From: Candidatus Omnitrophota bacterium
GTDB lineage: Bacteria > Omnitrophota > Gorgyraeia > Zapsychrales > Fredricksoniimonadaceae
Length of the DNA: 64,000 nucleotides
Assembly: GCA_903860135.1 (NCBI GenBank)
Contig: CAIOPG010000017.1
Coordinates: 11,364 to 75,363, forward strand
Reading direction: 5' to 3'
Shown here: one piece after another, positions 19,699-35,636 of the stretch
Numbering within the stretch: position 1 is the stretch's first letter
Layout of the letters: each line of letters opens with the position of its first letter
Notes under the pieces: generated by a model
Told to the model about the DNA's origin: nothing
The model's input: only the letters and a program-made list of their open reading frames with translations
The model's database searches: none
Translations under genes and position numbers: made by a program

Positions 19699-21348
19699 TT
19701 ACTCCTTGCGGTTCCGGTATTTTTCGGTCACCTTAAACTCCATATATCTCCCGAGCATCAGCCGCGTCTGCGCGTCGATCGCCGGTATAGAGCTGAGGGC
19801 CAGGATAACCACCGGAATGGCCAGCCAGTCAAATAAATGCAACAGCTTCTGCCGGAACCGGAGGCGTATCGTACTTGTTGATAAGAGTTCAATGCTGATC
19901 ACCATGCACACAACCAGTCCTGCCAGCGAAAGGCTGAAAATGATGTCCTTGATCCTTGGCGCCATGTAGTACATGGTCGTTGTGCCGAATTCCCGTCCGG
20001 CGAAGAAAGCCGGGAACAAATTAATAATGACCAGCAGGAACGATAGTGTTGCCCAGGATATGAACATGTCAAACAAGCGGAAGCTGAACATGACCTTCTT
20101 GTACAGCGATATGCCCGGCGACTGAAGGAAAGCGCGCATGACAATGGGCAGATTCTCAACACCCCAGGCCCAGCGGCGTTTTTGTTTGTAAATATTGATG
20201 AAAGTACCCAGCGATGTCTGCCCGCCGGCGATATCCATGGAGACCGTGGTGTAGATCGGAACAACCTGATAATTCCCGTCGTAATGAATGAATGATTTCC
20301 AGAAAATAGCCGAATCATCGGAGATCATGTCCACGGGCCAGTACCCCACTTCAACGAGAGCCTTGAAACTCATGCTGTGGCTTGAAAATGTCACCAGCTT
20401 TTCAGGGTTGGTGCACTCGACCAGCTGAAAGAATGAAGCCCCGATATCAATGACACGGGCAAAGCCCGGCACATCCCACAGATTGTTGTAATAGACCGGA
20501 ATGGGTTGATAACTGGCACGGGTACGCGAAGGCGTGATCATAAAATAATACGTCAGGCAGGCCAAATAGTCCCGGTGCGCCACCGTGTCGGCATCAAAGC
20601 AAGACACGATCACGTGCTCGAACGGGATGCCCTTGTCTGTCAACCATTGCCCGGCATGCCTGGCCGCCCAGGTCGCATTAGCACCCTTGACCCGTGACTC
20701 ACCCTCGATATCGGCCGGGTGTTCGACAACAAGAAAAGCCATGAACCTGGCGGCATACAACGCCTTCAGCGCATACACATCACGTTTAACCTCTGCCGAG
20801 GCTCTGGCCTCGAGTGCCACAACAAAGACCACACGATCCGTCGGATAAACACCAGCCGCAAGCCCGCGGATGCCGGGTTCGATCACATGACGTGATTCGC
20901 GGGCGACCGGAAGGATGATCACATGATGAATACGCGCTACGTCGGGTGGACACGCACCGGTCTTTCTTAACGCAGCTATTTGATTGCGGCGGATCCGCCG
21001 GGCTATATGTTGGCGCGGCGTGAGCGGAACTTTAGAACGTACCGCCAGCGTCTGCAGCAGGCTGTCGAGATCATGCATGCCGTTGATCAAACGCATCCAT
21101 TCTGTTTCTTTCTCAATGGCCAGCCGGGAATACGACACCCCCAGGAAGAAATTCATGTAAATAAGGCGCAAGACCCAGTAAAGCACAAACGCCACCATGA
21201 CCGCAGCCGCCCAAAGTGGCTGCGCCACCGACACGATGGCCATGCCCAGAATGATGCCCCAAGATAAAGCACCTGGCGCGATCTCGAAAAACCGCTCGAT
21301 ACGTTTTTCCTGACTATTCAGGTTATGACGGGAATAATTAAAAAGCAT
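19699..21348 (-). CDS. Processive family-2 glycosyltransferase (cellulose/chitin/hyaluronan-synthase-like), integral membrane
   Basis: N- and C-terminal TM segments. DAD (DxD) motif in SCFDADTV and the Q(x)xRW motif in KQKRRWAWG, characteristic of processive GT2 synthases. Confidence 0.85.
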   Translation of the reverse strand: MLFNYSRHNLNSQEKRIERFFEIAPGALSWGIILGMAIVSVAQPLWAAAVMVAFVLYWVLRLIYMNFFLGVSYSRLAIEKETEWMRLINGMHDLDSLLQTLAVRSKVPLTPRQHIARRIRRNQIAALRKTGACPPDVARIHHVIILPVARESRHVIEPGIRGLAAGVYPTDRVVFVVALEARASAEVKRDVYALKALYAARFMAFLVVEHPADIEGESRVKGANATWAARHAGQWLTDKGIPFEHVIVSCFDADTVAHRDYLACLTYYFMITPSRTRASYQPIPVYYNNLWDVPGFARVIDIGASFFQLVECTNPEKLVTFSSHSMSFKALVEVGYWPVDMISDDSAIFWKSFIHYDGNYQVVPIYTTVSMDIAGGQTSLGTFINIYKQKRRWAWGVENLPIVMRAFLQSPGISLYKKVMFSFRLFDMFISWATLSFLLVIINLFPAFFAGREFGTTTMYYMAPRIKDIIFSLSLAGLVVCMVISIELLSTSTIRLRFRQKLLHLFDWLAIPVVILALSSIPAIDAQTRLMLGRYMEFKVTEKYRNRKE

Positions 21349-21352
21349 ACGT

Positions 21353-22774
21353 TCATGTCCTCTTGTTCAGGAACTGATCAACAACGCTCTCGTCAGGGAC
21401 CAGCTGAACCTTCTCGAACAAACCCTGTTCGTTGATATAATACAGCCACCCTGTGTCAGGGTTGTACGCGATCGAAGAGCCTTTGCGAATAGCCGTAATA
21501 AATTCGTTGTGATCCCCGCCTTCGGGTTCAACCTCAATGAAATAAACCCTGTCATTATCGTTGCAAATGATGTGCGTTGCGGCATCGCCCCAGAAACACT
21601 GTTTAATGTCCTGGCCGCCGCTGAATACGACCTTCGTCGCCGGAGACTTGACAGCAGAAGCATCTGCAGGCCCGGGATCAACAAGCATAACGGCCGAAGA
21701 ATTCCAGTACATGAACATTTTGGCCCGCGCATGAAAAGCCATGCCCTTGACGCCTTTGTCAACGATCTGATAAGGAAAATCATTGAACAGGAGACTGCCG
21801 TCCTCACCGAGAAGGAAGATCAGCTTCTCTTCAGCGGGAGCCGATATATGATAAAAAGTATTCTTGTCCAGGAGAGCCTTGTCAAAATGATGCCCCTCCA
21901 GGAATGATTCTGTTTTGGTTTTATCACGCCCATATTTGATAAAACGGTTATCCGCCGTCATGAGATAAACCCGGTTATTATGAAACCCGACCCCCTTGAC
22001 CCCGTTGATATCACGCGGATAAATAACACCAGCCTCAATATCCACACGATCAATGTAATTGGTATACACCGCAAAGAGTTCATTGGTGTTCGACGGATCC
22101 CATTCGATCAGCAGGGGGTCTTTGAGGAAAAACCTGGTAATGTCGGCGAAGACCGGTCTTCCTCCCTTGAGCATCACCCACAAATATTTTCTCTCGAGCA
22201 AGCCACCGCCGTAAATGATGAATGAACGGCTGTTCTCTTGATGGGACAACGAGAGCACCGGAAAATCAAACCAAGGGGATCCCGGTTCAAGCAGTGGCAT
22301 TGATTTATCATTTTTTAAATTATACACCTCAATGCCGCCAAGATCATTGCCCCTGGACAATAAAAGAAAATCAGTGCCTGGCATCGGGAATAATTGACGG
22401 AACGCTCCCTTCAAGGGTGCTTGGGGCAAAAGATCATTGGGCAAAAGAAGGGCTTTTTCAAAGACCGAGGCCTTGCCTGCCCTGACAGCTACAGACTGCG
22501 TCCACGGCCGATGCCCGGGCATGGAAAGCGTCACACGGTAATCCCCAGGGCGCAGCTGGTCGATCGTCGCAGGTGTTTTACGGACAAACCGGCGATGCTC
22601 CAGATAAATAACCGCCCCCGGCGGTATCGAAGACAAATGGATAAGCCCTGTGCGCTCAACTTCGCGCGTGAAAGGGTCAAAGATATACCCCGAAGCATAC
22701 AGCAGAAGCCCCGGGCATAAGATCAGGTAGATCAAAAGAAAAAGATAGAATAGGATGCGGCGCACGATCAACAC
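21353..22774 (-). CDS. Membrane-anchored PEGA-domain protein with C-terminal beta-rich domain
   Basis: N-terminal TM helix, then a PEGA-like segment (IPPGAVIYLEHRRF...PGDYRVTLSMPGHRPW). It is 4 bp upstream of the GT2 start, so probably co-transcribed. Confidence 0.7.
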   Translation of the reverse strand: MLIVRRILFYLFLLIYLILCPGLLLYASGYIFDPFTREVERTGLIHLSSIPPGAVIYLEHRRFVRKTPATIDQLRPGDYRVTLSMPGHRPWTQSVAVRAGKASVFEKALLLPNDLLPQAPLKGAFRQLFPMPGTDFLLLSRGNDLGGIEVYNLKNDKSMPLLEPGSPWFDFPVLSLSHQENSRSFIIYGGGLLERKYLWVMLKGGRPVFADITRFFLKDPLLIEWDPSNTNELFAVYTNYIDRVDIEAGVIYPRDINGVKGVGFHNNRVYLMTADNRFIKYGRDKTKTESFLEGHHFDKALLDKNTFYHISAPAEEKLIFLLGEDGSLLFNDFPYQIVDKGVKGMAFHARAKMFMYWNSSAVMLVDPGPADASAVKSPATKVVFSGGQDIKQCFWGDAATHIICNDNDRVYFIEVEPEGGDHNEFITAIRKGSSIAYNPDTGWLYYINEQGLFEKVQLVPDESVVDQFLNKRT

Positions 22775-22777
22775 GTA

Positions 22778-24430
22778 TCAAGCACCCTTTCGTTGTACAA
22801 CCTGAGGCGGCACCGTGATCCTGACCACAAAAGCATCGCCCACCTTGGCCAGCAATTCCGCAGGGAATCCGTTCCGGCGGCAAGCTGCTTCAAGGCTCTC
22901 CCATGTATGATCATTGACGATCCCATAACTGACCGGCTGGCCCTGCAAGAAAGCAAACAGCTTCTCATCCGTATTCAGGTCAGGCACAGGGTGCGGGCTG
23001 AAGAAATTGGCATTACTGAAATTCAACAGGACCACATCCCTGCCGGAATAATACTTCACCGCCCGTATAAAGAACTTCGACGCCATGATCTTCCCGTCCA
23101 TCGCGGGCTGCTGCATCAAATAGGCCACGGCGGCCTGCGATGAAACATAAGGATCGATCTGCCGGCTTGCCGTTAATGCCAGGAACAGGAGCAAGGGCAC
23201 CTGCAACCCGAAAAGATAAACAGCGCGGCGGATATTATTTTGCAGAAACAGACTGCCGATGATCACAAGAAAAAGTATCTCAACCATCATGATAGCGCCA
23301 AGATGCAACGGTTCCGGAAGGTACGCAGGATATTTTTCACCCGCCACAAAGATCAATACCGGGACGAACAAAAAGAACACAAATGTCGTTACCTCCATCC
23401 AGCCAGGGCGCTTGAGTTGATCCAGCCGCTCCGTCAAATACGGACCGGCCAGCAATGCCAGCGCAGGGAACAAAGGAAAAATATAACTCACCAGCTTGGA
23501 ATGCGCCGGCTGAAAAACAACCAGCACCACGACGATCCATACCAAAAGGAACTGCTCGAATGGCTCTGCTTTTTTATCCAGTGAAGCTTTGATCGCCATC
23601 CATAGTGAAACGGCAACAGCGAGGATCCAGGGAAACATACAGCCGAGCATGGCTCCCGGATAAAAATACCAGCGGTCATTGGACCTGTGCTCCGCCGATA
23701 GCAAGCGCCGCCAGTGATCATTATAAAAAAATTCATGCGTGAACCCGTGGCCATAAAGTTTGCACATGAGCGCGTACCATGGCAAGGCGATCACAACCCC
23801 CATGAACAAGCCGATCCAGAAAGCTTTTGTTAACAGGAATTTCTGCTCCCCCCGCCATAAGAGGAAGATCAGGACCGTTATCAGCGGGATGGCAAAACCC
23901 AAAGGCCCTTTGGTCAGTACCGCCAGCGCCGCAAAAACATGGAACAAGATAAGCCCGATCGTCTTACGTCCCGGCGACCGATAAGCGGCATAGAACGCCG
24001 TGAGTGCCAGCAAAATAAAGACAGAAAAGATCATGTCGGTGAACACGGTCTTGGCCAGTCCGATATAAAGGGCCGAAGTCATGAGGATAAAAGCCCCCAT
24101 GAACGCTTTGCGCTGGTCGGCATGAAACAAGCGGCCCAGAAAATACACGGTCAACACGCCCAACAGCGCGAACAAGGCCGGAAAAAATCGGGCGGCAAAC
24201 GGCGTCTGCCCAAACATTAGAAAACCGGCACGGATCAGATCATACGTCAGGACAGGCTTTTCAAACTGCGGTTGACCAAATATATACGGCGTTACCCATG
24301 TCCCGGCTGTCGCCATTTCCTTGGCCGTTCCGGCATAGAAAACCTCGTCAGGATTTGTTAATGGAAGAACATTATTCCCACCGAAGAAAATAACAGCCGC
24401 CAATAAAGACAGGATGATGATATGCCGCAT
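22778..24430 (-). CDS. GT39-family (ArnT/PMT-like) polyprenyl-phosphate-sugar-dependent glycosyltransferase, GT-C fold
   Basis: N-terminal NPDEVFYAGTAKEMATAGTWVTPYIFGQPQFEKPVL matches the ArnT/PMT first periplasmic loop (DE..Y..A.EM...G.W..P..G.PYF.KPPL). Multi-TM, 550 aa. Confidence 0.8.
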   Translation of the reverse strand: MRHIIILSLLAAVIFFGGNNVLPLTNPDEVFYAGTAKEMATAGTWVTPYIFGQPQFEKPVLTYDLIRAGFLMFGQTPFAARFFPALFALLGVLTVYFLGRLFHADQRKAFMGAFILMTSALYIGLAKTVFTDMIFSVFILLALTAFYAAYRSPGRKTIGLILFHVFAALAVLTKGPLGFAIPLITVLIFLLWRGEQKFLLTKAFWIGLFMGVVIALPWYALMCKLYGHGFTHEFFYNDHWRRLLSAEHRSNDRWYFYPGAMLGCMFPWILAVAVSLWMAIKASLDKKAEPFEQFLLVWIVVVLVVFQPAHSKLVSYIFPLFPALALLAGPYLTERLDQLKRPGWMEVTTFVFFLFVPVLIFVAGEKYPAYLPEPLHLGAIMMVEILFLVIIGSLFLQNNIRRAVYLFGLQVPLLLFLALTASRQIDPYVSSQAAVAYLMQQPAMDGKIMASKFFIRAVKYYSGRDVVLLNFSNANFFSPHPVPDLNTDEKLFAFLQGQPVSYGIVNDHTWESLEAACRRNGFPAELLAKVGDAFVVRITVPPQVVQRKGA

Positions 24431-24453: not shown

Positions 24454-25098
24454 CTACCGTAGTTTTCGCCCAAGAAGATACAGCGGCACCGCCTTGCCCG
24501 CAAAATTTTCCATATAGCTTCTTTGCCCCTGAAACAAAAGCACGAAGCCGTTCTTTTGAAAAAAGTCAGCGCCAGCCGATGACATGGTGCCCAGATGAAC
24601 CCCCTTCACCCCTGCTTGCGTGAAAGCTTCCACCAGTGTCCGGATCAAAGCCCCTCCTGCCCCATGCCCCCGACGATCCGCCTTGAGGTTAATATGAAGG
24701 ACCGCCGGATAATCTTCGCTGAAAGACGGCATAAAAAACTCACCCTTTAGAAAACTGGCGGCAAGACCGCCGAGCAACTTCATATTTCTGGGACGCAACA
24801 GGAGCCCCTGGCCCAGGGCATCAACACAAAGGCCGGGAATGATCTTGGTCCAAACAACCCTGTCCATTTTCTTCTCGTCCCTGGCCCCCAGAATATATCC
24901 GGCAACAACCCCGTCCACTTCAAACACCCAGATGCTTTCGGGTTCATGATCCGTAAAATACAGTGTTAATGCATCTTTCAAGAATTCCTGGCCTTCAAAG
25001 AAAACAGCGGCACTGGCGCCCATAAACGCGGTTTCAAAGGCAATCTGCCGGACAGCACTGCGGTCAGTCAACCGGTAAGGACGGATCACCGGATTCAT
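24454..25098 (-). CDS. GNAT-family N-acetyltransferase
   Basis: Acetyl-CoA binding region ...HINLKADRRGHGAGGALI... (R/Q-x-x-G-x-G/A). 214 aa. Overlaps the upstream PIG-L gene by 4 bp. Confidence 0.75.
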   Translation of the reverse strand: MNPVIRPYRLTDRSAVRQIAFETAFMGASAAVFFEGQEFLKDALTLYFTDHEPESIWVFEVDGVVAGYILGARDEKKMDRVVWTKIIPGLCVDALGQGLLLRPRNMKLLGGLAASFLKGEFFMPSFSEDYPAVLHINLKADRRGHGAGGALIRTLVEAFTQAGVKGVHLGTMSSAGADFFQKNGFVLLFQGQRSYMENFAGKAVPLYLLGRKLR

Positions 25099-26483
25099 GG
25101 CAGTTCCAAGACGCGCCAGGCGGTTTCATCAAGGGTCAGATCATAAACAGCCGTCTTGGCACAACTGAACACGTATTGCGGATCACCGAGCAAAGATAAC
25201 GGCACCTTGAAGATCATTTCCTTGCCTTTATCCAGAAAAATAACTTCAGCTGAAGCAATCGTGCGTTTCTTATCTTTAACATGAAACCCGTTCAGGCCGA
25301 CAATGAGGCTGATCTTGGGCATTTGGCCGTAAGGCGTTTGACGGCTGTACCCCATCAGGGAAACCGACATCCCCAGGTCTTTATCCATCACCCGTTTGAG
25401 AACGACGCGGATGACCAGGTAATTTCCCTGCCGCGCATAAGCAAGCTGGGTAAAATGTTCGGTTTCAGCACTCTTGACACGATTTTTGACAGAGGCATGA
25501 ATAGCAAGATCCGTCCAGGACAACTCGGTATCTGACGCCAGCTGACGCGGCAGAACGATCGCAGGGAAATTACCAAAGATCTCGTTCCGTCGGGCAAAAG
25601 TGACCAGGTAACGCGGCGCATATTTGATCTGGGAAGGATACTCCAGTATGGCATCAAATTTCTTTCCGATCTCCGATGTGTCCAGCGGCTGCTCGATCCA
25701 CCTGATCCCTTTCTTGTCAAAGCCCGGAGGGATTGACAACTGAAGTTCAGGATGATACCCCCGCAGTAACGGCCACCCGGCCACATGAATGATATAGGGA
25801 AATACCTCGGGAGGCGCGATGCCCATCTGCGTGGCGAGGTCCCATAGTGCCACCTGCATAAAAAGATAAAGCGCGCGATGATCCCTGTTCACATCAGCCG
25901 GATGCGACACAAATATCTTGGTCGGCTTAAACGCGGCAATGACCTGTTCCAGATCTTTGAGGATATTTTCTCCAACATACGCCGCGCCCGGTGAAACCGC
26001 TTCCTGATACGGGACTTTATTGACCCTAGAAAGCATACTGCGAAAAGGCTTTGTTTCCCCCCAGTATTTCAGGAAGATCTCCATCGTGCCGTAATCTGGA
26101 TAGCCCAGAGAAATAATATCTTCAGGGCGTACACCCAGCACGCGCATGGCATCGACGCTTTCCTGACGGCGCACCTCGCCCAGGCGAAGAAATTCTTTGG
26201 GTTTAAGCACAAGCCGCCGCTCGTACACAATAAAAGCGAACTCATTATTCTCGCCATTGGTGAAAAGGCATACCCGCGTAGCGGCACCGGCTTTCAGGGC
26301 CTGTTGCAATACCCCACCGGTAGCGATGGTCTCATCATCCGGGTGCGGCGCAAGGACAAGCACCCGGTCGGCCGCAGAAAAGCTGATAGCCGACGGCAAT
26401 GCCTCGGCATCCTGGGCATAGCCCGGGACACCCATGAAATAGACCGAACATAAAATAAATAAAGCAATTTTGCAAAAGGACAT
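25095..26483 (-). CDS. Exported PIG-L/LmbE-family de-N-acetylase with C-terminal extra domain
   Basis: Signal peptide MSFCKIALFILCSVYFMGVPGYAQDA. LVLAPHPDDETIATGG is the PIG-L (A/S)HPDDE zinc-deacetylase signature. 462 aa. Confidence 0.8.
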   Translation of the reverse strand: MSFCKIALFILCSVYFMGVPGYAQDAEALPSAISFSAADRVLVLAPHPDDETIATGGVLQQALKAGAATRVCLFTNGENNEFAFIVYERRLVLKPKEFLRLGEVRRQESVDAMRVLGVRPEDIISLGYPDYGTMEIFLKYWGETKPFRSMLSRVNKVPYQEAVSPGAAYVGENILKDLEQVIAAFKPTKIFVSHPADVNRDHRALYLFMQVALWDLATQMGIAPPEVFPYIIHVAGWPLLRGYHPELQLSIPPGFDKKGIRWIEQPLDTSEIGKKFDAILEYPSQIKYAPRYLVTFARRNEIFGNFPAIVLPRQLASDTELSWTDLAIHASVKNRVKSAETEHFTQLAYARQGNYLVIRVVLKRVMDKDLGMSVSLMGYSRQTPYGQMPKISLIVGLNGFHVKDKKRTIASAEVIFLDKGKEMIFKVPLSLLGDPQYVFSCAKTAVYDLTLDETAWRVLELP

Positions 26484-26552: not shown

Positions 26553-27674
26553 TCAATCTCTGCTCCGGGGACGTTCTGCTGACTGGTGCGGAAGTGTCAG
26601 GCTTTCTGCCAGGGCTGGATTATCTTTCAAATTACCATAATAAAAAACAAGGCAGGCCCGGGCGCCTGATTGCTCACAAACGCTGAACTGCTCGCCAAAA
26701 ATAGCCGGTGTTTTAATGAATTTATAAGCCCCGACACACATATTAACCTTCGTGAAATCAACCACATGCTCCCGCACCTCGGCCATTTGCTCGATAAAGT
26801 CCGGCACATTATCCGGATAACTCATCACCGAAACAAATTCGACAAGGCCATCATTGACCCAGGAAGGCCAGTCCTGAAAAGCCTCATGATACGCCCTGAA
26901 GTATGACATGCACCCCGTCGTGGAAATATGAATATCCGGATGAATGGCCCGGGCTCGGGCAACGAGCTGACGAAGAAGTCCCGTCACCTGGGCGCGTTTC
27001 CAGTTTTGCCACGCCGGGGTTGCCTCACGGAAAGACATGACCCGCACAACTTTCCTGAAACGTTCCAGATTGGCGCACGTATACCCGTAAGCCGGTTTTG
27101 CGTCTGGATAACGGATATAATCAAATTGGATACCATCGAGCTGAGGATACCGCAGCAACAATTCACCGGTCATCGCCTCCAGTTCCTTGCGCACACGCGG
27201 ATCCCCCGGTTCAAGGAAATATTGGCCGTCGATCTTGTAATCCTCCAGCTTTTTCTTGGCGACCACATTTCTGGTCAGGATCCGACAGCCATACTTCTTT
27301 AACAAAGGTGCCTGCGTATTGGTACTGAGGCTCAGCAAGTTGACCCACGCATGCACCTCGATGCCCGCCGCATGCGCTTTACGGATGAACAAGGCAACAG
27401 GATCTTCTCCCACAGCCTCTAAGGCACGCGCATAAGGTGCCGCATCGCCAACGCGCGAAGGAAACCATGCCTGATTTGCCCGGTAGACTTGCAGAAAAAC
27501 GACCGTTATCCGCGCTTGCCTGGCCAATGCCACCACATCGTCCATCGCCTGTCGACTTGAAAGTACGGGCTTCTTTTCAATAAGGCTGACAAAAATACCT
27601 CGCCCTGTGGCTGTACCCGCCTGCGCTGTCCCGGCGATAAGTATGAGGGTGCTCACCATGATGGCTCCCACCAT
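26553..27674 (-). CDS. GHL10/UPF0748 (YddW-like) putative glycoside hydrolase, exported
   Basis: TIM-barrel-like motifs (VVFLQVYRANQAWFPS, GIEVHAWVN). The start was moved to the internal Met (MVGAIMVSTLILIAGTAQAG) that gives a signal peptide. Confidence 0.6.
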   Translation of the reverse strand: MVGAIMVSTLILIAGTAQAGTATGRGIFVSLIEKKPVLSSRQAMDDVVALARQARITVVFLQVYRANQAWFPSRVGDAAPYARALEAVGEDPVALFIRKAHAAGIEVHAWVNLLSLSTNTQAPLLKKYGCRILTRNVVAKKKLEDYKIDGQYFLEPGDPRVRKELEAMTGELLLRYPQLDGIQFDYIRYPDAKPAYGYTCANLERFRKVVRVMSFREATPAWQNWKRAQVTGLLRQLVARARAIHPDIHISTTGCMSYFRAYHEAFQDWPSWVNDGLVEFVSVMSYPDNVPDFIEQMAEVREHVVDFTKVNMCVGAYKFIKTPAIFGEQFSVCEQSGARACLVFYYGNLKDNPALAESLTLPHQSAERPRSRD

Positions 27675-27723
27675 GCCTTGGGCCCCGTAGCCGTTGGCGG
27701 GATACTTGGCATGAACAGGACGA

Positions 27724-29520
27724 TTATTTAACAGGAACATCACGCCCCAGCTTACGCTGAATGTCCCGGATCATCCCACTAAAACGTGCGTCCGCAGGCG
27801 CCAGTGCCAGGCCCTTTTCAAGCCAGGCAAGGCTTTCGGCGTAACGCGCTTCATTGGCCAGCATAACGCCCAGCAGTAAATAGGGCTCAAGGTACTGCGG
27901 ATCCATCGCCTGACACCGTTCAAGCATGGTCCTGGTCTTTCCGGAAATTCCATTGTCAAAAAAGATATAACATAGTTGAAAAAGATCCTGCTGACTTGTT
28001 CCTTCGCGGACAAGCGTGCGCATGATCTCATCTGCCAGGGCAACATCCCCATTCTTTTCATACGCCACTGCCAGCTTGCAAAGAAGAATACGTTTTTCAG
28101 GCGCGCGTTTTTCAGAACGCACCAGCAGTTTGATCACACGGATAGCTCTGGCATTGGCATTGATCTTCAAATGCCAGTCCGCCAGGAATGACATTTGTGA
28201 AATAAGCGGTTCCTGGATCTCCATATCTTTTTCAAAAGAAAAAAGCCCCTCGAGGGTTTCCAGAGCGATCGTATTGTTCGGGGACTTATTCAACCAGTTA
28301 AGGCAATAACTGATATCATTGCGCCCGACGGGAATATGCCGGAATGTCATGGCAAGCAAAAAGATCGTAATAGCCGTAATAAAAGTAACAAAAAGATACT
28401 TGTTACAAAACCCCTGCATCCGCTGGATCGCTGACGCCACGATCAGGAAAAACCCGATAGACGAAAAGTAAAACCAGTAGGGTTCAACCACAAACCCCAT
28501 CTGCGGACGGCATATCGATCCGGGGATAACAAATAAAAGTCCACTCATAAAGACGGCCAGTCCTAGGCCTTCCGTATTCGGCTTGGGGTTACGCCATATC
28601 AGCCAGCAAAAACTAGCCGTAAAAGAAACGCATGCCATATTCCATAGCCAGATAAAGCTCTTGACCGGTAGCATATTGAACATAAAAACAATATCAGTCG
28701 GGAGGAAAAGATTGCTGATATACCACTTGATCAAAATAAAGAAATTCGCCACAAAAACCCAAAAGGTCAAATGAAAAGAATGCGCCCTTTCGAGCATGCT
28801 CGTCTTTGAACCAGCCAACCACAACCACGTAATGACACATACCCCTGTCAACAAGATGAACGGCAGGCAAAGGCGCAGGGTTTTCTTGACATCAGCAGTC
28901 CTGTAATAAAGAAAAGCAGCGGCATAAAAGATAAAAAACCACGAAACCTCCTGAAACAAAAGCGCGACAAAGAATGACGCAAGGCTCAGCCCATAAAAAA
29001 CATGGTTCTTGCTTTGTTCAATATGTTTGTACAGAGCGATGAGGCTTAATTCCATGAAAATGACACTGAACAGGATATTATTGAATGCAATATGCATCAT
29101 CACTTCAGCACTCATGGGATGCATACAAAAAAGCAGGCTTGTGCCCAGCGCGACAAAATATTGCCGGGTGAAAAGGAAGATAACAACGAACAATAAATAA
29201 CAATTAATGAAGAAAAGAAAGATATTGATACCATACAGCGGCCCCGCCTCTTTAAAAAGAGAAAAAAGAATGCCGTTGGTCAAATTATACAGGGGTTCGA
29301 AATGATGCGTGCGGGCAAAAATAAGCCCCGGCTCCCTGAATATCCGGGATACTTCATGAAAACGCAGAAAAAAGAAATCATCCCCCAGGAATTGATGCTG
29401 CAAGACCGGGGTGTACACTAAAAGGCACAGGACAAATAACAATGCCGCGGGCAAAAATATTTTTATTCTTTCACTAATAAACATGGGTGTCAGTATATTA
29501 CATTGCACCCGCTTGTCCAA
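27724..29520 (-). CDS. Polytopic membrane protein with C-terminal TPR repeats (TMTC/PMT-like GT-C candidate)
   Basis: Roughly 11 predicted TM segments in the N-terminal 430 aa. C-terminal TPR-like repeats (…KLAVAYEKNGDVALADEIM…YLLLGVMLANEARYAESLAWLEKGLALAP). GC is about 38-42%. Confidence 0.75.
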   Translation of the reverse strand: MDKRVQCNILTPMFISERIKIFLPAALLFVLCLLVYTPVLQHQFLGDDFFFLRFHEVSRIFREPGLIFARTHHFEPLYNLTNGILFSLFKEAGPLYGINIFLFFINCYLLFVVIFLFTRQYFVALGTSLLFCMHPMSAEVMMHIAFNNILFSVIFMELSLIALYKHIEQSKNHVFYGLSLASFFVALLFQEVSWFFIFYAAAFLYYRTADVKKTLRLCLPFILLTGVCVITWLWLAGSKTSMLERAHSFHLTFWVFVANFFILIKWYISNLFLPTDIVFMFNMLPVKSFIWLWNMACVSFTASFCWLIWRNPKPNTEGLGLAVFMSGLLFVIPGSICRPQMGFVVEPYWFYFSSIGFFLIVASAIQRMQGFCNKYLFVTFITAITIFLLAMTFRHIPVGRNDISYCLNWLNKSPNNTIALETLEGLFSFEKDMEIQEPLISQMSFLADWHLKINANARAIRVIKLLVRSEKRAPEKRILLCKLAVAYEKNGDVALADEIMRTLVREGTSQQDLFQLCYIFFDNGISGKTRTMLERCQAMDPQYLEPYLLLGVMLANEARYAESLAWLEKGLALAPADARFSGMIRDIQRKLGRDVPVK

Positions 29521-29578: not shown

Positions 29579-32110
29579 TTGCGAAGGATAACAAAAACCT
29601 ATAAAGTAAAGCCTATGAAAAAACAAAATCCTGCTAAAGTGATCGCTTGGTTCATCTGCGCCCTCATCGCCCTGTGCATCGGCCTTTACTTCCGGCTTTA
29701 TCCTTTGTACCACAATGTGGCTTCTGACGCCTACGAGCAAGCGACCATGCTGGTTCTTGCCAAAATGCGCGCTGATATTGCGGGGCAAATCTCCAGTGCC
29801 TATCCGACTCTACCACCTGCCCAACAGCAACGGATCATCCAGGAACAGTTAAACCAGGCCCTCCGGACACAAAAAACAAAACTGCACGAGACGTTTGACA
29901 AAGTAAGCCGGGAAATACTCAAAAAGACCGGTGAGACCCGTCATTACCTTCAGGAATCCGATTCTTACTATTTTCTCGACCTGACACAAAACATCCTTGA
30001 AAAAGGCGATGTGAGTACCCAGGTGAACGGCAGTCAATATTTTAATAACCGCATGCTTGCCCCCATCGGCTACTGGGAACCGCAGACATGGCACCCGTAT
30101 ATCGGTGCATGGGTCTACAAAGCCGCAAAAGCATTGAACCCGGATATCGACGTCATGCGGGGCGTTGCGTTCACACCGCTGTTCCTTTTTCCTTTCATCC
30201 TGGGTGCTTTTTTCCTGGCCTGCCGTGCCTTTGGCTGTCAATGGCCTGCGGCTTTCACCGCATCGATCTTTTTCGCCCTTGCCCCCATTTACCTCCAGCG
30301 CAGTACCTATGCCTGGTATGATAACGACTCCTACAGCGTTTTATTCCCCCTGCTCAACATGGGGCTTACAGTCCTGGCATTAAAGTCGCTGGATAACACA
30401 CGCAAAGCCCTGATCTGGAGCGTTCTCGCCGGACTTTCGTTTGCCCTCTTCGCCCGCTTCTGGACCGGATGGAGCTTTTCCTGGGGCATCGCCATGGCCG
30501 CGCTCAGCCTCATGACCGTACGCGCCTATTTCTTTAAAGAACCGCGTCGCCACAATCTTGCCCTGGTGCTTCTCATGACCGGTGCCATCACCCTGACCTG
30601 TCTCACGGCCATGATCGGCTTAAACCAGTTCCTCGCCCTTTTCCCTCTGGCCGCCCAGGAACTCGGCAAATTCATTGCTCCCCGGCTCAAGGACTGGCCG
30701 GACCTTTTCATTGTTGTCGGTGAACTTCGCCGCGGTACAATGGCTGAATCTGTCATGCTGACCGGTGGTCCTGTTGTTTTTTATGGTGCCCTTGCCGCTT
30801 TCTTCATTTACGCCCGCGAGGCGGTCATCAAACATAAAAGCCCGTCGAATGCCATACTCCTGCTGGCTTTCTTTACAGGTGCCACCTTCCTGCTGGCCTT
30901 GAGTGCCGAACGCTTCGCGCTTCTTCTGTTAGCTCCGCTTTCCATTGCTTTTGCGGTTGCCCTCGAACAACTCTGGCAACGGCGCCGGCTCTGGGCAGAA
31001 AGACTCAAACTCCCCAATCAAACCATGGCCAAATCTTTGCTGTTACTATTTTTTATGGGAACCATCATCCCGTTGACAGCAACAAACCAGAATATCGCTT
31101 CATTCCTGCATCCCATCTTCAACTCCGCCTGGGACCGCGCCCTGACAGCCCTGCGCGAGAAGACACCCGAAAACAGCGTCATCAACACCTGGTGGTCTCC
31201 CGGGCACTTTGTCAAAGCTATCGCGCGGCGCAGCGTCACCTTCGACGGCGCATCCATTAAAGGCGAACAAGCCTACTGGCTGACAAAAGTTTATCTGAGC
31301 CCCAATGAAGAAGATGCCCTGGGGATCCTGCGTATGCTTAACACCAGCTCTAACCAGGCGTGTGAATGGTTGCAGGCCCTTGGCTGGCCGGTATCACGCG
31401 CCACAGCCTTGCTTGAAACGATCACACGCATGCCGCGCACCGACGCCAGCCATTACCTGAACGGTATCCTGAGCCCGGTGCAAGCCGCGGCCTTGCTTAA
31501 ACTGACGCATGGCACGCCGCCGCCTTCTTATCTGCTTATCTATAACGAAATCGTGGAAGGTAATGTCCTGCTCGGTTATGTCGGTAAATGGGATTTTACC
31601 CGCATCGAACAATTAAATGCCACCCCCGCCGCACTGAAAAAGATCCCCTCCCGGAGTTCCAAGAATTACATCGACTTCCTCTGGAGCTTAGTCGGCGGGC
31701 CGCTTCGCCAGAGCGAAACACTTTCCCCTGCCGGACGCAATGGCTCCAAGATCCTTTTTGACCAGGGCATGATCCTCGACACCGCTGATATGACGGTCGA
31801 GATCAATTCCCCCAAATTCGGCCGTGGCATCCCTGCGTCGGTGGTTTACCTGGACCCCGCCACCAACCGTGTGCAACAAAAAACGCTCCCCAACGCCACA
31901 ATGAGTTATAGTGCGGTGATCTTCAAGGACAACAACAACATCCCCCACGGCGTGCTCATGGATTCGTTGCTGGCCAATTCACTCATCATGAAATTGTATT
32001 ATTTTAACGGCCAAGGCCTCACGTATTTCAAACCTTTCGCCAAGGAACAAGACCTGAGTGGCCGCACAAAAATCTTGATCTACGCCGTCCAATGGCCGGC
32101 GGGATTTTGA
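29579..32110 (+). CDS. STT3/PglB/AglB-like oligosaccharyltransferase-family membrane protein (degenerate WWDYG motif)
   Basis: 843 aa with a multi-TM N-terminal half. At about residue 540, INTWWSPGHFVKAIARRSVTFDGASIKG is collinear with PglB [23 protein letters not shown] (WW-xx-G…V…T..DG). Divergent from the rest of the island. Confidence 0.7.
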   Translation: MRRITKTYKVKPMKKQNPAKVIAWFICALIALCIGLYFRLYPLYHNVASDAYEQATMLVLAKMRADIAGQISSAYPTLPPAQQQRIIQEQLNQALRTQKTKLHETFDKVSREILKKTGETRHYLQESDSYYFLDLTQNILEKGDVSTQVNGSQYFNNRMLAPIGYWEPQTWHPYIGAWVYKAAKALNPDIDVMRGVAFTPLFLFPFILGAFFLACRAFGCQWPAAFTASIFFALAPIYLQRSTYAWYDNDSYSVLFPLLNMGLTVLALKSLDNTRKALIWSVLAGLSFALFARFWTGWSFSWGIAMAALSLMTVRAYFFKEPRRHNLALVLLMTGAITLTCLTAMIGLNQFLALFPLAAQELGKFIAPRLKDWPDLFIVVGELRRGTMAESVMLTGGPVVFYGALAAFFIYAREAVIKHKSPSNAILLLAFFTGATFLLALSAERFALLLLAPLSIAFAVALEQLWQRRRLWAERLKLPNQTMAKSLLLLFFMGTIIPLTATNQNIASFLHPIFNSAWDRALTALREKTPENSVINTWWSPGHFVKAIARRSVTFDGASIKGEQAYWLTKVYLSPNEEDALGILRMLNTSSNQACEWLQALGWPVSRATALLETITRMPRTDASHYLNGILSPVQAAALLKLTHGTPPPSYLLIYNEIVEGNVLLGYVGKWDFTRIEQLNATPAALKKIPSRSSKNYIDFLWSLVGGPLRQSETLSPAGRNGSKILFDQGMILDTADMTVEINSPKFGRGIPASVVYLDPATNRVQQKTLPNATMSYSAVIFKDNNNIPHGVLMDSLLANSLIMKLYYFNGQGLTYFKPFAKEQDLSGRTKILIYAVQWPAGF

Positions 32111-32171
32111 TTAATCTTGTTTTTTAATTTTTTTTTGTTAATATAGTTTCTGTTCTTAAAATAGCTTATTT

Positions 32172-32247
32172 GGGTCGGTAGCTCAGTTGGGAGAGCGCCT
32201 CGTTCGCAATGAGGAGGCCGTGGGTTCAACTCCCATCCGATCCACCA
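32172..32247 (+). tRNA. tRNA-Ala (anticodon CGC)
   Basis: Cloverleaf folds as GGGTCGG acceptor / GCTC…GAGC D-arm / CCTCG-TTCGCAA-TGAGG anticodon arm / GTGGG-TTCAACT-CCCAT T-arm. It has the G3:U70 Ala identity pair and an encoded CCA. Confidence 0.9.
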
Positions 32248-32262
32248 TTTGATACAACAAAA

Positions 32263-32296
32263 AACCTTGTTCCAGACGGAGCAAGGTTTTTTGTTG
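32263..32296 (+). terminator. Rho-independent terminator after tRNA-Ala
   Basis: aaaaccttg…(12-nt loop)…caaggtttttt: a 7-9 bp stem followed by a T-run. Confidence 0.55.
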
Positions 32297-32423
32297 GTTT
32301 CAATACCAAAGAGAGGGGACGCCCTTCCGCTTTATCCCACGAGGCCACGCACCCCAAAGTCTTCCTGGCCCCCGCCAGCAAAGAGCGTATCCCGGTGATC
32401 GGGCGCCCCCCCTTATTTATAGC

Positions 32424-32690
32424 TCAACTGTTTGTATGGTAGTGTTCTACCACTTTTTGCGACAAATTTTCATACACCGCGGCTGAGCGGCACACAACCT
32501 GATCATACCAGCGATTATCCTTGCCCTGCTCCTGGGGCATGGAAATAAATAACCCCTTCTTGCCGTCGAGAAGGCGGATCCCGCGGATGACCAGTGTGTC
32601 GTTGACACAAACATCCGCAAAGGCTTTCAGGTTGCCGGCATCGGGCAAGCGATACATCTTTTCCACATTGAACGTAATACTCGACGACAT
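32424..32690 (-). CDS. spoVG: SpoVG-family protein
   Basis: Translation aligns with the SpoVG family (…NDTLVIRGIRLLDGKKGLFISMPQEQ…VVEHYH). 88 aa. Confidence 0.8.
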   Translation of the reverse strand: MSSSITFNVEKMYRLPDAGNLKAFADVCVNDTLVIRGIRLLDGKKGLFISMPQEQGKDNRWYDQVVCRSAAVYENLSQKVVEHYHTNS

Positions 32691-32943
32691 AACTCCTCCT
32701 TCAATTATGATTGATTGGGCTGGGGTCGCCCTTCACACAACAACTATATCACATGATTTGATGATTTGTCAATACTGCATTTGTCTTATGGACAACTTTT
32801 ATTCCAACCCCTGCCCTCTGCCATCAGTTAACTCTCAAGGCAGGATGTCGTTGCGCTAATCACTTAACATATTATTTTAATTAATAAATAGATTGTTGTA
32901 TCCTCAAAGCGTGCTAGGATAATCTTTCTAACAGGAGAAATAT

Positions 32944-33498
32944 ATGTTGAAGGAAATAGGCGCCCATATCCGGCAGATCCGCAAAATAAGAAAAATATCA
33001 CTGACCGAACTTTCCACGGCGAGCCAGGTTCAGATCGCTACCCTTTCACGCATCGAAAACGGAAAAATGACAGGAACGCTGGGGTCACACCTTAATATTG
33101 CCAAAGCCCTGGGCGTCAACCTGGCCGAACTTTATGAAGGCCTTGAAAAACCGGCTCTCACCGCCCTTAAGGCGGGAAACCCCACCGATATGTTGGTTTC
33201 CACCAACGACAAAATATCCTGCGCAATCCTCTCACGCCAGGCGGCATCCAAAAAGATGCTCCCACTGCTCATCAGGATGAATGGTCACACATCCACCGAT
33301 CCTGAACAGGGAAAACCGGGTGCTGAACGTTTCATCTTTGTGCTCGAAGGTACCGTGGCCATCAAGATCAAAGACCAGTCGGTCAAACTGGAAAAGAATG
33401 CGTCACTCTATTTCAGCGCGGCAACCACGCATATCATTGAGAATCCCGGCGCAACAGCCGCAAAATTAATCTCGATCATGACACCGGCATCCCTATGA
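32944..33498 (+). CDS. XRE-family HTH transcriptional regulator with C-terminal cupin domain
   Basis: N-terminal HTH (IRKIRKISLTELSTASQVQIATLSRIENGK). C-terminal cupin-like β region (FIFVLEGTVAIKIKDQ). Confidence 0.8.
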   Translation: MLKEIGAHIRQIRKIRKISLTELSTASQVQIATLSRIENGKMTGTLGSHLNIAKALGVNLAELYEGLEKPALTALKAGNPTDMLVSTNDKISCAILSRQAASKKMLPLLIRMNGHTSTDPEQGKPGAERFIFVLEGTVAIKIKDQSVKLEKNASLYFSAATTHIIENPGATAAKLISIMTPASL

Positions 33499-33842
33499 AT
33501 ATCATCCTGATCTATTCACCCGAAGAACGGATGCGTGAGGAAATGAAATCAGCCCTCGCGAACCACCTCCCCCTCATTGTCACCGAGGACCGCGCGCAAT
33601 GCCTTGATGCCCTGAAACAAAAATCAATCATTCACAAAGCCTTCCTGGCCGTCGTTGACGCTGATGATACCGCTGACCTCGAGCTCTTTGAAGAAGCCGC
33701 CGCCTTGCGGCCGGGCCTCAAGATGATCGCCACAGGCCGGCATGAAACAGAAGCGCTGGCCGTTGAAGCCGTTAACCATGGTGCTGACGGCTACATCCTG
33801 CTCCCGCTCACCCCTGACGCCATTATGACGGCGGCGCGCTAG
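33495..33842 (+). CDS. Stand-alone receiver (REC) domain protein
   Basis: CheY-like fold signature (ILIY…VVDADD…KMIATG). 4-bp overlap with the upstream regulator gene. Confidence 0.6.
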   Translation: MNIILIYSPEERMREEMKSALANHLPLIVTEDRAQCLDALKQKSIIHKAFLAVVDADDTADLELFEEAAALRPGLKMIATGRHETEALAVEAVNHGADGYILLPLTPDAIMTAAR

Positions 33843-33882: not shown

Positions 33883-34479
33883 CTATCGGGCAGACTGAAA
33901 GGCGGAATCCTGCCAAAGGCCGGCTCCGTCCTTACGGGCATCGCGAAAAGCCTGACGGAATTTCTCGGCATAACGGATGTTGGGAGGGATGGTCATGGGA
34001 TAGGCGTACCCGTTGCGGATAATATCCTCATTCACAAAAAGGCCGTCGTCGACACGGTAAACATACGCCAACAGGCGCCCGTATTTATCCCGCCTTTCGA
34101 TATCGAATTCCAGACGCACCTTGCGACCTTCCAGCAGTGAAGTTGTATACACACCCGCCCTGTGCCCCATGCGCAGAATATCGTCCACAGCGGTCCCTGA
34201 ACGACGGGCATCGCGCAGGAGTTTTTTGTTCTTACTGGATTCAGGCGTATCGATGCCGACAAAACGCACCTTTTCCCCGTTGGACAACTTGATCGTATCG
34301 CCGTCATAAACATAAACCACATCAATGGCTGTGTAGTCAGCAGGATCGATAGCGATCGGGGGTCGTGCTTTGCCCGGGAATGAGGGGCTATAGTGGAACA
34401 CCGCGAAGAAAAAGGCCATGAAGGCAAGAAGGTATAAGACCGGACGCACGTTGGCGAAAAAACTTGAAGGCTGACGCAT
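33883..34479 (-). CDS. Thermonuclease (SNase-like) family protein, membrane-anchored/exported
   Basis: YDGDTIKL…VRFVGIDTPE… match micrococcal-nuclease motifs. N-terminal hydrophobic segment. Confidence 0.75.
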   Translation of the reverse strand: MRQPSSFFANVRPVLYLLAFMAFFFAVFHYSPSFPGKARPPIAIDPADYTAIDVVYVYDGDTIKLSNGEKVRFVGIDTPESSKNKKLLRDARRSGTAVDDILRMGHRAGVYTTSLLEGRKVRLEFDIERRDKYGRLLAYVYRVDDGLFVNEDIIRNGYAYPMTIPPNIRYAEKFRQAFRDARKDGAGLWQDSAFQSAR

Positions 34480-34481: not shown

Positions 34482-35636
34482 TCAGTCAACGTCCTTCAGA
34501 CGGGTAAGGTGCGACGATGGATAGTAGAAATCCAGTATCTGGCGATAATTATAATGCGCCAAAGACATACGATAAGCTCCCCACTGGCATAAACCGACGC
34601 CATGCCCCCAGCCGAACCCGACAAAATCCACGAACCAGCCCTTCATTTCAATGTCATATTTATTGCTTCTGAGAATATTGGGCCCGATGATATCACGGAA
34701 CAACTTTCCTTCAACGATCTCCTCTTTGCCGTCGCGCGCGATGATCTTTAACTTTCTGACCCGGCCGCTTTTGTTGCGCTCTTCCACCTTGATCTCACGG
34801 ATAAGGCCAAGCGTGTACCCCCGGGCATCAAGGGCATCCTGAATATTCTTGAGACGGAAATTCTGGCGCCAGCGATAGTGCGGCGAGTCTATCGAAAAAG
34901 GCGACTGAACCCCGCCCTTCAGGGGCAGGATATCAATATCCCAAAGCTCGGCGGCATCTTCGGTAACCCCGCCGCTATTGGCATGAAAGAAAGCGGGAAA
35001 TATCTTGTCCTTGTACGTCAAGACCTCGCCGTGTGTCCGAGCCACCGCGATATTGGTGCGATAGCGTTCAGCCCCCCTGCCGCCGTACACCTGCGAATAA
35101 ACATCATTGGTCACGTCATAATCATGGGCCGCGAATTTTTCCATGGAATAAACAGCAAACGTGCGCGTCGCCACCGCCTGCGCCTTGATGGCATCGAGCG
35201 GCCACTGATCAGATATTTCACGGTAAAGCACGCCGCCGATATACTGTTCAAGCTCGATGATATTAACTACGGTAATATGCTCGCCGCGGTTATTGATCAC
35301 AAGGATATTGCCCCTGTAACGCTTGTCATTCACACTGACCAAAGCCCCGCGCCGCGGCATGATAAGCAGGCGCACCGCTTCATAAACATGCGGACCAAAA
35401 CGCGTCTTTCCTTTTTCCAGGGACACAAACGTCGGCGGCATCCGGGTGCCTGAATCCAGGCGGATACCGGTGGCAAAATCCATCACATCATAACGGCCTT
35501 CAACCGCCATGGTGAAATGATCTTGATCGCGCAAAAGGGCCACACGGATAAACCGCGCATCGGCCGTAACCAGTCCGTCCATCATAAAAAGGATGATCGG
35601 CAACAAAAAAAACGCACGTAGGAACATGGCCAGCAT
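34482..35636 (-). CDS. SpoIID/LytB-domain protein
   Basis: SpoIID/LytB family similarity across the C-terminal 250 aa (…QVYGGRG…FHANSGGVTEDA…GHGVGLCQWGA). N-terminal signal/TM. Confidence 0.75.
   Translation of the reverse strand: MLAMFLRAFFLLPIILFMMDGLVTADARFIRVALLRDQDHFTMAVEGRYDVMDFATGIRLDSGTRMPPTFVSLEKGKTRFGPHVYEAVRLLIMPRRGALVSVNDKRYRGNILVINNRGEHITVVNIIELEQYIGGVLYREISDQWPLDAIKAQAVATRTFAVYSMEKFAAHDYDVTNDVYSQVYGGRGAERYRTNIAVARTHGEVLTYKDKIFPAFFHANSGGVTEDAAELWDIDILPLKGGVQSPFSIDSPHYRWRQNFRLKNIQDALDARGYTLGLIREIKVEERNKSGRVRKLKIIARDGKEEIVEGKLFRDIIGPNILRSNKYDIEMKGWFVDFVGFGWGHGVGLCQWGAYRMSLAHYNYRQILDFYYPSSHLTRLKDVD

Follow-up and report, generated by a model that had tools for sequence, protein, structure and literature searches.

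The subject of this analysis is one gene in a 64,000-nucleotide stretch of a Candidatus Omnitrophota genome (GenBank assembly GCA_903860135.1, contig CAIOPG010000017.1, positions 11,364 to 75,363 of the forward strand; here called the window), which an initial annotation had described as STT3/PglB-like with a degenerate catalytic-site motif, WWSPG in place of WWDYG. We find that its product truly belongs to the STT3 superfamily but lacks one of the defining features of a canonical oligosaccharyltransferase (OST), the WWD motif, and that its genomic context has not been described for such enzymes. Several points go beyond the initial annotation: the substitution defines an Omnitrophota-wide family, its commonest form is WWPPG and not WWSPG, and the genes of this family are linked to a type II secretion system (T2SS)/pilus-like apparatus. 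The linkage is strong and recurrent; it takes in a periplasmic protease as well and, in a number of lineages, a glycosyltransferase family 2 (GT2) protein resembling lipid-sugar synthases. On balance we lean toward an active, single-subunit OST-like enzyme that would follow a nonclassical acceptor rule and probably acts on components or cargo of the T2SS/pilus-like apparatus, a reading that we hold with moderate confidence.

The assignment to the STT3/PglB group held at the level of both sequence and fold. The Pfam STT3 membrane-domain model (PF02516) matches residues 121 to 462 with 66.2 bits (cutoff, 24.5; E = 5.2e-18), and a profile of 24 family members searched against solved structures recovers STT3A (~1e-13), a fungal STT3, and Archaeoglobus fulgidus AglB (3waj; 8e-8). 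Two other models stay below threshold for the window protein, namely, STT3-PglB_core (PF21436; 12.5 bits versus 23), which is listed for some divergent relatives (unmarked in locus L086, weak in L089, and faint in L088), and NCBIfam archaeo_STT3 (TIGR04154; 48.6 bits versus a cutoff of 450). An AlphaFold2 model computed from the family alignment (pLDDT, 85; pTM, 0.80) contains a first transmembrane helix (TM1), a helical first external loop (EL1), 12 more membrane helices (13 in total) with a flexible or disordered loop at residues 367 to 397 between the 9th and 10th, and a mixed alpha/beta C-terminal domain, in agreement with the predicted architecture of a polytopic N terminus followed by a soluble domain. 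In a Foldseek search of the PDB, the top match of this model was full-length Campylobacter lari PglB (5ogl; E = 1.4e-20; TM-score of 0.69 normalized to the target), followed by yeast and human STT3 and A. fulgidus AglB (E ~1e-13), and the isolated C-terminal domain of Campylobacter jejuni PglB (3aag) was matched separately (E = 2.8e-8). Matches to DPY19, AftA, ArnT (5ezm; E = 1.6e-4; TM-score of 0.30), and PMT proteins (Pmt4, 5e-4; PMT, at least 5e-4) were weaker by orders of magnitude. This fold and profile evidence, the presence of an STT3-type C-terminal domain, and the lack of any Pfam match to the ArnT, PMT, and YfhO families rule out the competing assignment to one of these families, which the initial annotation had named as the outcome that would overturn its own.

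The gene is an uninterrupted ORF (open reading frame) of 843 codons from a TTG, closed by a TGA at 32108 to 32110. The relatives open with MKK, which matches M13 of the ORF, and the ATG at 29615 is probably the true start, because it aligns the N termini and yields a product of 831 amino acids, the length of the closest relative. The segment quoted in the initial annotation, TWWSPGHFVKAIARRSVTFDGASIKG, corresponds to residues 537 to 562. A pseudogene or degenerate copy was considered and ruled out, as the ORF is intact and full length and carries all family-invariant residues. The features discussed here and the neighboring genes are collected in Table 1.

Table 1. Features of the STT3-like gene and of the genes beside it (window coordinates; EL, external loop)
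Feature	Position	Strand	Basis or remark
STT3/PglB/AglB-family GT-C glycosyltransferase gene	29579..32110	+	ORF, Pfam, AlphaFold2 model, Foldseek
TM1, residues 18-44, with invariant R39 and P42	29630..29710	+	Alignment, AlphaFold2 model
Family-specific helical insertion of ~75 residues in EL1 (3 helices, residues 50-117), before the catalytic Asp	29711..29938	+	
EL1 motif YLQESDSYY; invariant D128 on human STT3A D49 (= PglB D56); candidate catalytic/metal-binding Asp	29945..29971	+	
RSTYAWYDNDSY; R241 and D248-x-D250 on STT3A SRSVAGSYDNE; putative D-x-D/E metal site (= PglB R147, D154, D156)	30299..30334	+	
EL5 motif WPDLFIVVGEL; invariant W373, P374, V380, G381, E382; positional equivalent of TIXE/SVSE (PglB E319)	30695..30727	+	
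AERFA; invariant R445 on the conserved Arg of STT3A (= PglB R375, yeast R404; pyrophosphate contact)	30905..30919	+	
WWSPGHF, residues 538-544; signature WW[P/S/A/C/T]PG[H/Y]F in place of WWDYG[Y/H]; +2-binding Asp absent	31190..31210	+	
C-terminal periplasmic domain, residues 510-843	31106..32107	+	Alignments, AlphaFold2 model, Foldseek
GNAT acetyltransferase (cluster pair c22/c20)	24454-25098	-	Context
PIG-L-family deacetylase (cluster pair c22/c20)	25095-26483	-	Context
GHL10 glycosyl-hydrolase-like gene	26553-27743	-	Context; divergent from the STT3-like gene
598-aa polytopic membrane protein with C-terminal tetratricopeptide repeats (TPR)	27724-29520	-	Context; divergent from the STT3-like gene

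OSTs work with a catalytic Asp in EL1 (D56 in PglB, D47 in AglB and yeast, and D49 in STT3A), a metal site made of an Arg and a D-x-D/E motif (R147, D154, and D156 in PglB), a Glu in EL5 (E319 in the TIXE/SVSE motif of PglB; E351 in STT3A), and an Arg that contacts the pyrophosphate (R375 in PglB and R404 in yeast) (PMC7226087). In the alignment of 24 sequences, whose identity to the window protein ranges from 29 to 76%, D128, V380-G381-E382, and R445 show no variation, R241 and D250 reach at least 90% conservation, and D248, too, is invariant or nearly so; D128, D250, the VGE segment ending in E382, and R445 are also kept in 82 loci and in six copies of about 30% identity. HMMER aligns YLQESDSYY on IHEFDPYFNY of STT3A, which places D128 in the E-x-D-x-Y-F block, RSTYAWYDND on the SRSVAGSYDNE segment, and AxRF on VMVRL, with R445 on the Arg of ..VMVRLML... 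The commonest forms of the metal site in the family are WYDND, WYDTD, and WYDDD, and a few members carry K, R, or N at the first position. Of the sites that the initial annotation had singled out for inspection, EL1 and D-x-D are therefore aligned with STT3A, and the EL5 Glu is matched by position: V380-G381-E382 belongs to a flexible stretch linking TM9 and TM10 that is modeled with low confidence, and it precedes by about 38 residues the segment aligned to STT3A residue 382, with no residue-level alignment to E319 or E351. The EL1 insertion has no STT3A counterpart, and the alignments to STT3A start only at residues 121 to 125. Judged from sequence, the catalytic and donor-binding apparatus appears to be intact and the change appears to lie in the acceptor-reading element.

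That element is the WWDYG motif. Profile alignments set WWsPGhF of the family on WWDYGYQ of human STT3A, WWDYGYW of Pyrococcus furiosus AglB, and WWDYGHW of A. fulgidus AglB, and HMMER aligns NTWWSPGHFVKAIARRSVTFDG on the WWDYG-containing segment of STT3A, which bears out the collinearity that had been proposed with PglB. With a profile of the C-terminal domain, WWppG falls precisely on the WWDYG of both STT3A and P. furiosus AglB (2zag; 5e-8), and the same segment is matched in STT3B and in the PglB proteins of C. jejuni (7e-6) and C. lari (2e-4). The alignment offset brings the first Trp onto C. lari PglB residue 463, consistent with the W463/W464/D465 numbering of that enzyme (PMC8479172), in which D465 contributes -20.7 of the -34.4 kcal/mol of interaction with the +2 Thr (PMC8479172). 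The contacts reported for the +2 Ser/Thr are both Trp residues and the Asp of WWD and I572 of the MXXI motif (PMC7226087, PMC8479172). The initial annotation was right to name the Asp as a +2 contact, but the Tyr, which it also named, is not among these residues, and a motif that binds the acceptor is not a catalytic-site motif.

Nor is the motif degenerate. In a set of 186 proteins that includes 150 representatives from an exhaustive hidden Markov model (HMM) search, WWPPG occurs 109 times, WWSPG 53 times, and WWAPG and WWCPG 7 times each, the rest being rarer variants, and WWD does not occur at all; the 82 nonredundant loci give the same order (WWPPG, 59; WWSPG, 21; WWAPG, 1; WWTPG, 1). The signature WW[P/S/A/C/T]PG[H/Y]F is conserved across the 186 relatives, and W538 and W539 are invariant. 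WW-x-PG is an alternative motif maintained by a whole family and not a lesion. Classical N-x-S/T sequon reading has probably been lost, because the Asp that dominates +2 Ser/Thr binding is absent from every member. Among the explanations that the initial annotation had offered, altered acceptor specificity emerges as the best supported, and a noncatalytic paralogue is disfavored by key residues that are conserved down to 29% identity. The Tyr that follows the motif in canonical enzymes (PglB Y468 and yeast Y521) binds the first sugar through its C2 N-acetyl group (PMC7226087); in the window protein, the residue after the motif Gly is H543, and it is H or Y throughout the family, as it is His in A. 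fulgidus AglB and Tyr in PglB and yeast Stt3. Farther along the C-terminal domain, conserved R551..D556-G557 align on the R..DN/DG segment of STT3, AglB, and PglB, and a helical insertion occupies approximately residues 562 to 643.

The exhaustive HMM search returned 1,170 representatives of clusters at 50% identity (E <= 1e-30), and a genome scan found 161 relatives among species representatives. Their labels are almost all Omnitrophota or "uncultured Planctomycetales" metagenome-assembled genomes (MAGs) that carry the same family. Labels other than Omnitrophota stand on many of the loci surveyed (L012, L013, L019, L025, L058, and others): besides the "uncultured Planctomycetales" binchicken MAGs, there are single records of Candidatus Elulimicrobium (filed in the Patescibacteria group) and of Lysobacterales. 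These records are probably mislabeled or misbinned, to judge from identities of 36 to 58% and shared synteny. The WW-x-PG family is essentially restricted to Omnitrophota, a phylum of the Planctomycetes-Verrucomicrobia-Chlamydiae (PVC) group. Database entries call its proteins "STT3 domain-containing" or "hypothetical." To our knowledge, bacterial STT3-type N-glycosylation has been described essentially in Campylobacterota and in a few Desulfobacterota and deep-sea relatives, all with WWDYG. Our literature searches found no work that links Omnitrophota (Omnitrophica) to STT3 or to an OST and none with WWPPG or WWSPG, a search for D465A was also without matches, and two Omnitrophota papers with accounts of conserved T2SS-like loci make no mention of an STT3 homologue. 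An evolutionary survey of STT3 counts only "a few bacterial homologues" (PMC4973528).

The genomic surroundings of the family were surveyed in 86 loci (numbered with the prefix L), in which ORFs were called and then clustered. In the majority order of the main subfamily, a gene for an HtrA-like S1 protease abuts or overlaps the STT3-like gene on the same strand, and a convergent T2SS/pilus-like set follows, which reads, starting from the STT3-like gene, TPR protein, PilO-like protein, PilM-PilN, GspK-like protein, two N-methyl pseudopilins, GspG-like protein, Peptidase_MA protein, GspF, and GspE (MshEN). At least two genes of the T2SS set lie within 8 kb in 54 of the 66 loci with at least 3 kb of downstream sequence, and the protease gene is directly upstream and on the same strand in 54 of the 73 loci with sufficient upstream sequence. 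The flank opposite the T2SS set varies between lineages in at least six ways, and the T2SS adjacency appears to have survived many rearrangements, because this other flank differs from lineage to lineage. In the WWSPG subclade, to which the window protein belongs, a small GT2 gene, a gene for a PMT_2 protein, and often a UDP-GlcNAc 2-epimerase gene are placed between the STT3-like gene and the TPR/T2SS set. The closest solved structures to the small GT2 are ArnC, dolichyl phosphate (Dol-P)-mannose synthase, and GtrB, and the PMT_2 protein weakly resembles Agl23. In the closest relative (L007; 75% identity), the GT2 gene is directly upstream and the T2SS set is about 5 kb downstream. The protease of the main subfamily (cluster c2, L007 to L085) consists of an HtrA-like S1 domain without a PDZ domain.

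A second subfamily, only 26 to 31% identical to the window protein and comprising 42 of the 150 representatives, places the gene inside the T2SS operon itself, in the orientation of that operon, in four of the five loci that are informative (L005, L087, L088, and L090); a further locus, L089, is too short to inform on context, and a look-up of the surroundings of another protein, P0093, found nothing. In L005 and L088, the order is PilMN, TPR protein, a DUF2304 gene and a GT2 gene on the opposite strand, the STT3-like gene, and, farther on, GspK and an S41 protease; L087 has the same gene set with the STT3-like gene after the S41 protease. In L090, the order is GspF, GspG, two pseudopilins, the STT3-like gene, GspK, and PilMN, with overlapping ORFs. 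Three tandem STT3-like paralogues within the T2SS operon of L088 (10001 to 17568), whose mutual identity is 29 to 33%, have all kept WWPPG, the EL1 Asp, and W[Y/F]DTD, and a single organism may accordingly have several specificities for donors or acceptors. Because four of the five informative loci are operonic, inherited gene order explains the association poorly and a functional link to the T2SS is favored. Two unrelated periplasmic serine proteases thus recur with the STT3-like gene, the S1 enzyme in the main subfamily and a CtpB-like S41 enzyme in the divergent one (L005, L087, and L088, beside GspK). We also observed that a gene of the ATP-synt_ab type (an A/V- or FliI-like ATPase subunit of ~470 to 480 amino acids) adjoins the T2SS GspE-like ATPase gene in three distant loci (L003, 22404 to 22547; L005, 1 to 873; L088, 1 to 1313).

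Our results lead us to propose that the enzyme works as its homologues do: at the periplasmic face, a polyprenyl-(pyro)phosphate carrier would supply a sugar or glycan, the chemistry would depend on the EL1 Asp, the R/D-x-D metal site, the EL5 Glu, and the Arg that binds phosphate, all of them conserved, and the sugar or glycan would pass to a periplasmic acceptor lodged between the membrane and C-terminal domains. The acceptor would be selected by something other than the classical N-x-S/T rule. Because of the gene neighborhood of the family, components or cargo of the T2SS/type IV filament-like apparatus may be the acceptors, with pseudopilins as the leading candidates by analogy with the archaeal pilins and archaellins that AglB glycosylates. 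The neighborhood also includes a periplasmic serine protease (HtrA-like S1 in one subfamily and S41 in the other) and, in several lineages, a small polyprenyl-phosphate-sugar-synthase-like GT2 together with a DUF2304 or PMT_2/Agl23-like protein. A bolder version, that this is a phylum-wide STT3 lineage that has given up N-x-S/T recognition to become a dedicated modifier of a T2SS/type IV filament apparatus, for example of its pseudopilins, recognizing a new sequon or a structural epitope, possibly transferring single sugars from polyprenyl monophosphate, and working together with the protease, is one that we entertain only tentatively.

Several observations weigh against the proposal as we have framed it. 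On the side of acceptor recognition, the two Trp residues are kept, and some recognition of the +2 hydroxyl could survive through them. No recognizable counterpart of the DK/MXXI motif was found, and the C-terminal-domain profile aligns to solved OSTs over only ~80 residues around WW, with no sequence-level alignment more than about 50 residues past the motif. Residues 696 to 707 (NYIDFLWSLVGG) bear some resemblance to an STT3 segment (DDINKFLWMVRIGG), and in this tentative alignment D699 would stand in place of K and N696 in place of D. Counts of N-x-S/T in the proteins of the linked cluster, compared with shuffled sequences, gave no usable signal, as cytoplasmic GspE and PilMN were no less "enriched" than the exported proteins and the homologues are not independent, and no conserved Asn-centered motif common to the pseudopilin families was found; the conserved KINxNT blocks of GspK-like proteins are presumably features of the GspK fold itself. 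The equivalence of E382 with PglB E319 is one of position. On the side of context, the T2SS adjacency is absent in 12 of the 66 loci, the window included, the STT3-like gene of the main subfamily is convergent with the T2SS operon and not cotranscribed with it, a divergent member (L086) is found in a polysaccharide-type cluster with GT2, DegT, flippase, PMT_2, and sulfatase genes, and the identifications of the GT2 and PMT_2/Agl23-like proteins come from weak matches (E ~1e-5; 35 bits versus a cutoff of 126).

Some of these points can be turned into rival explanations. The retained Trp residues, with the Ser of WWSPG, might bind the +2 hydroxyl in an ordinary N-oligosaccharyltransferase that still uses N-x-S/T and whose T2SS adjacency is incidental; the invariance of W538 and W539, the conservation of all catalytic residues, and the STT3-type C-terminal domain would suit such an enzyme. 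We nevertheless judge it decidedly improbable, considering that the Pro of the commonest motif (WWPPG in 109 of 186) cannot make side-chain hydrogen bonds, that neither a DK/MXXI counterpart nor an above-threshold STT3-PglB_core match is detected, and that the gene is within the T2SS operon in several deep lineages. The same operonic placement bears on the possibility of a nonclassical OST-like enzyme that acts as a general glycosylator of periplasmic or surface proteins, with the T2SS location reflecting coregulation or inherited gene order. The convergent orientation in the main subfamily, the loci without T2SS adjacency, and the placement of the window gene and of L086 in other glycan clusters agree with this idea, which we regard as unlikely; yet the adjacency outlasts many independent rearrangements of the other flank and recurs on the same strand at 26 to 31% identity, including an insertion within the pseudopilin block.

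An acceptor that is not a protein at all (lipid, peptidoglycan, or polysaccharide), used by an ArnT-like or polymer-ligase-like enzyme on an STT3 scaffold, would account for the loss of the sequon-reading Asp, and it draws on the window cluster with its ArnT-like GT-C, synthase-like GT2, PEGA, PIG-L deacetylase, and GHL10 genes and on the flippase, DegT, and PMT_2 neighbors in L086. Of the Asp and Glu that clamp the Asn carboxamide in OSTs, however, the Asp is conserved and the Glu has a conserved counterpart by position, elements of the peptide groove (WW, the R..DG segment, and the C-terminal domain) are kept, and the dominant context is a protein-filament/secretion operon and not a polysaccharide operon, which makes this a quite unlikely explanation in our view. 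Least probable is a noncatalytic paralogue that would serve the secretion apparatus as a structural part or scaffold. Its appeal is that the hallmark motif is altered in all members and that the genes accompany a machine and not a pathway. A pseudoenzyme is unlikely because conservation extends to the catalytic Asp, the D-x-D site, an EL5 Glu, and the pyrophosphate Arg, near invariantly down to 26 to 29% identity and even in three ancient tandem paralogues, which would be unexpected without catalysis, and genes for GT2 proteins resembling lipid-sugar synthases colocalize.

Compared with known systems, the active, nonclassical enzyme that we favor is closest in structure to Campylobacter PglB (GT66; 3RCE, 5OGL, and 6GXC), its best full-length match including the C-terminal domain and likewise a single polypeptide. 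The two have in common the EL1 Asp, the R/D-x-D site (W[Y/F]D[N/T]D versus D154-x-D156), a flexible EL5 with a Glu (matched by position), the pyrophosphate Arg, and WW followed by R..DGG. Unlike PglB, with which its identity is only 13 to 14%, the window protein lacks the Asp of WWD, has Pro for Tyr, shows no recognizable MXXI, and carries a helical EL1 insert of ~75 residues and a helical insert in the C-terminal domain; the family genes stand outside any pgl-type locus, in the context of a T2SS-like operon with a protease. The archaeal AglB enzymes (A. fulgidus AglB-L, 3WAJ/7E9S; P. furiosus, 2ZAG) are similar at the profile level, the His after the motif Gly recalls WWDYGHW of the A. fulgidus enzyme, and genes for a Dol-P-sugar-synthase-like GT2 and an Agl23-like PMT_2 protein near the family gene in some loci offer a further parallel. 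Unlike AglB, the family has bacterial hosts of the PVC group, has lost WWD, and has no recognizable DK motif.

Among pilus-locus glycosyltransferases of bacteria, PilO/TfpO, PglL, and TfpW are polytopic and periplasm facing, use lipid-linked sugars, and are encoded beside the filament subunits that they modify; the linkages that they form are O-linkages, and their families are Wzy_C/O-antigen ligase or others of the GT-C type. The logic would be the same here, but the window enzyme is of the STT3 family, and any action on pseudopilins would be a prediction from gene context. In archaea, AglB glycosylates archaellins and pilins (PMC5131992), a parallel to the filament-operon context of the WW-x-PG family. 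The best sequence-profile matches of the family are eukaryotic STT3A and STT3B (1e-13), and the blocks shared with STT3A are E-x-D-x-Y-F, A/Y-P-L-G, R-S..Y-D-N-[D/E], the conserved Arg, and WW..G..I/V..A..R..DN/DG. Eukaryotic STT3 is part of a multisubunit complex that reads N-x-S/T through WWD and DK (PMC7226087), whereas the window protein stands alone and without the Asp. ArnT, PMT, and YfhO-type enzymes share the general GT-C membrane fold and an acidic EL1 residue, and only the window protein adds the STT3-type C-terminal domain.

Within its own family, the window is an exception. Neither the T2SS cluster nor the c2 protease was found anywhere in the 64 kb, and the STT3-like gene, separated from that cluster, is now at the edge of another glycan-biosynthesis cluster. 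It is one of few genes on the plus strand, almost all others being on the minus strand, and this plus-strand island is consistent with a local rearrangement in which the gene lost its usual T2SS neighbors. The plus-strand block (29579 to 33842) contains the STT3-like gene, two small ORFs, a helix-turn-helix-cupin regulator, and an unannotated ORF of 115 amino acids; GC skew is negative in every 2-kb bin of the window (1 to 64000), and nearly all long ORFs are on the minus strand. The arrangement of the GHL10 gene and the polytopic TPR protein gene is specific to the window. The latter ORF overlaps the GHL10 gene by 20 nucleotides, and outside the TPR repeats its product has no match to a Pfam family or PDB chain; FLGDDFFF after its first helix somewhat resembles the acidic EL1 motif of GT-C/TMTC-like enzymes. 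The GNAT/PIG-L pair beyond the GHL10 gene is also found immediately upstream of the protease/STT3-like pair in six loci (L042, L064, L072, L078, L083, and L084).

Beyond this pair, the minus-strand genes at 13730 to 24430 encode a UDP-sugar dehydrogenase, an NAD epimerase/dehydratase, a GT2 of 549 amino acids (Glyco_trans_2_3, weakly PgaC-like), a PEGA-domain protein, and an ArnT-like GT-C (178 bits against the ArnT model, short of the cutoff), and the run looks like an exopolysaccharide or lipid-modification cluster. A protein of 1,125 amino acids at 15156 to 18533 (minus strand) has a weak radical-SAM match (residues 683 to 784) as its sole recognizable domain; its homologues (cluster c19) are at most 10 kb from the STT3-like gene in 10 loci and directly adjacent in some, upstream of and divergent from the protease/STT3-like pair in L022 and L023 and convergent with the STT3-like gene, between it and the TPR gene, in L061 and L083. 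SpoVG and SpoIID homologues (32424 to 32690 and 34482 to 35636, both on the minus strand) occur here, in a phylum from which sporulation is not known, with a secreted SNase-like nuclease (33883 to 34479) between them, and an ORF of 593 amino acids without a Pfam match (10676 to 12457, plus strand) lies among minus-strand housekeeping genes.

Our findings describe a family in a phylum of the PVC group that runs to over 1,000 clusters (50% identity), appears to have kept the chemistry of the OSTs, and has discarded the residue that reads the sequon. If active, it would show how an OST scaffold can acquire a rebuilt mode of acceptor recognition, which bears on the engineering of sequon-independent glycosylation catalysts, and it would be a first hint of a bacterial T2SS/type IV filament system coupled to an OST, as is the case for archaeal pili and archaella. 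It would also add a testable surface-modification system to the Omnitrophota, which have been proposed to be predators or parasites dependent on secretion and pilus systems (bioRxiv 10.1101/2023.11.21.568195).

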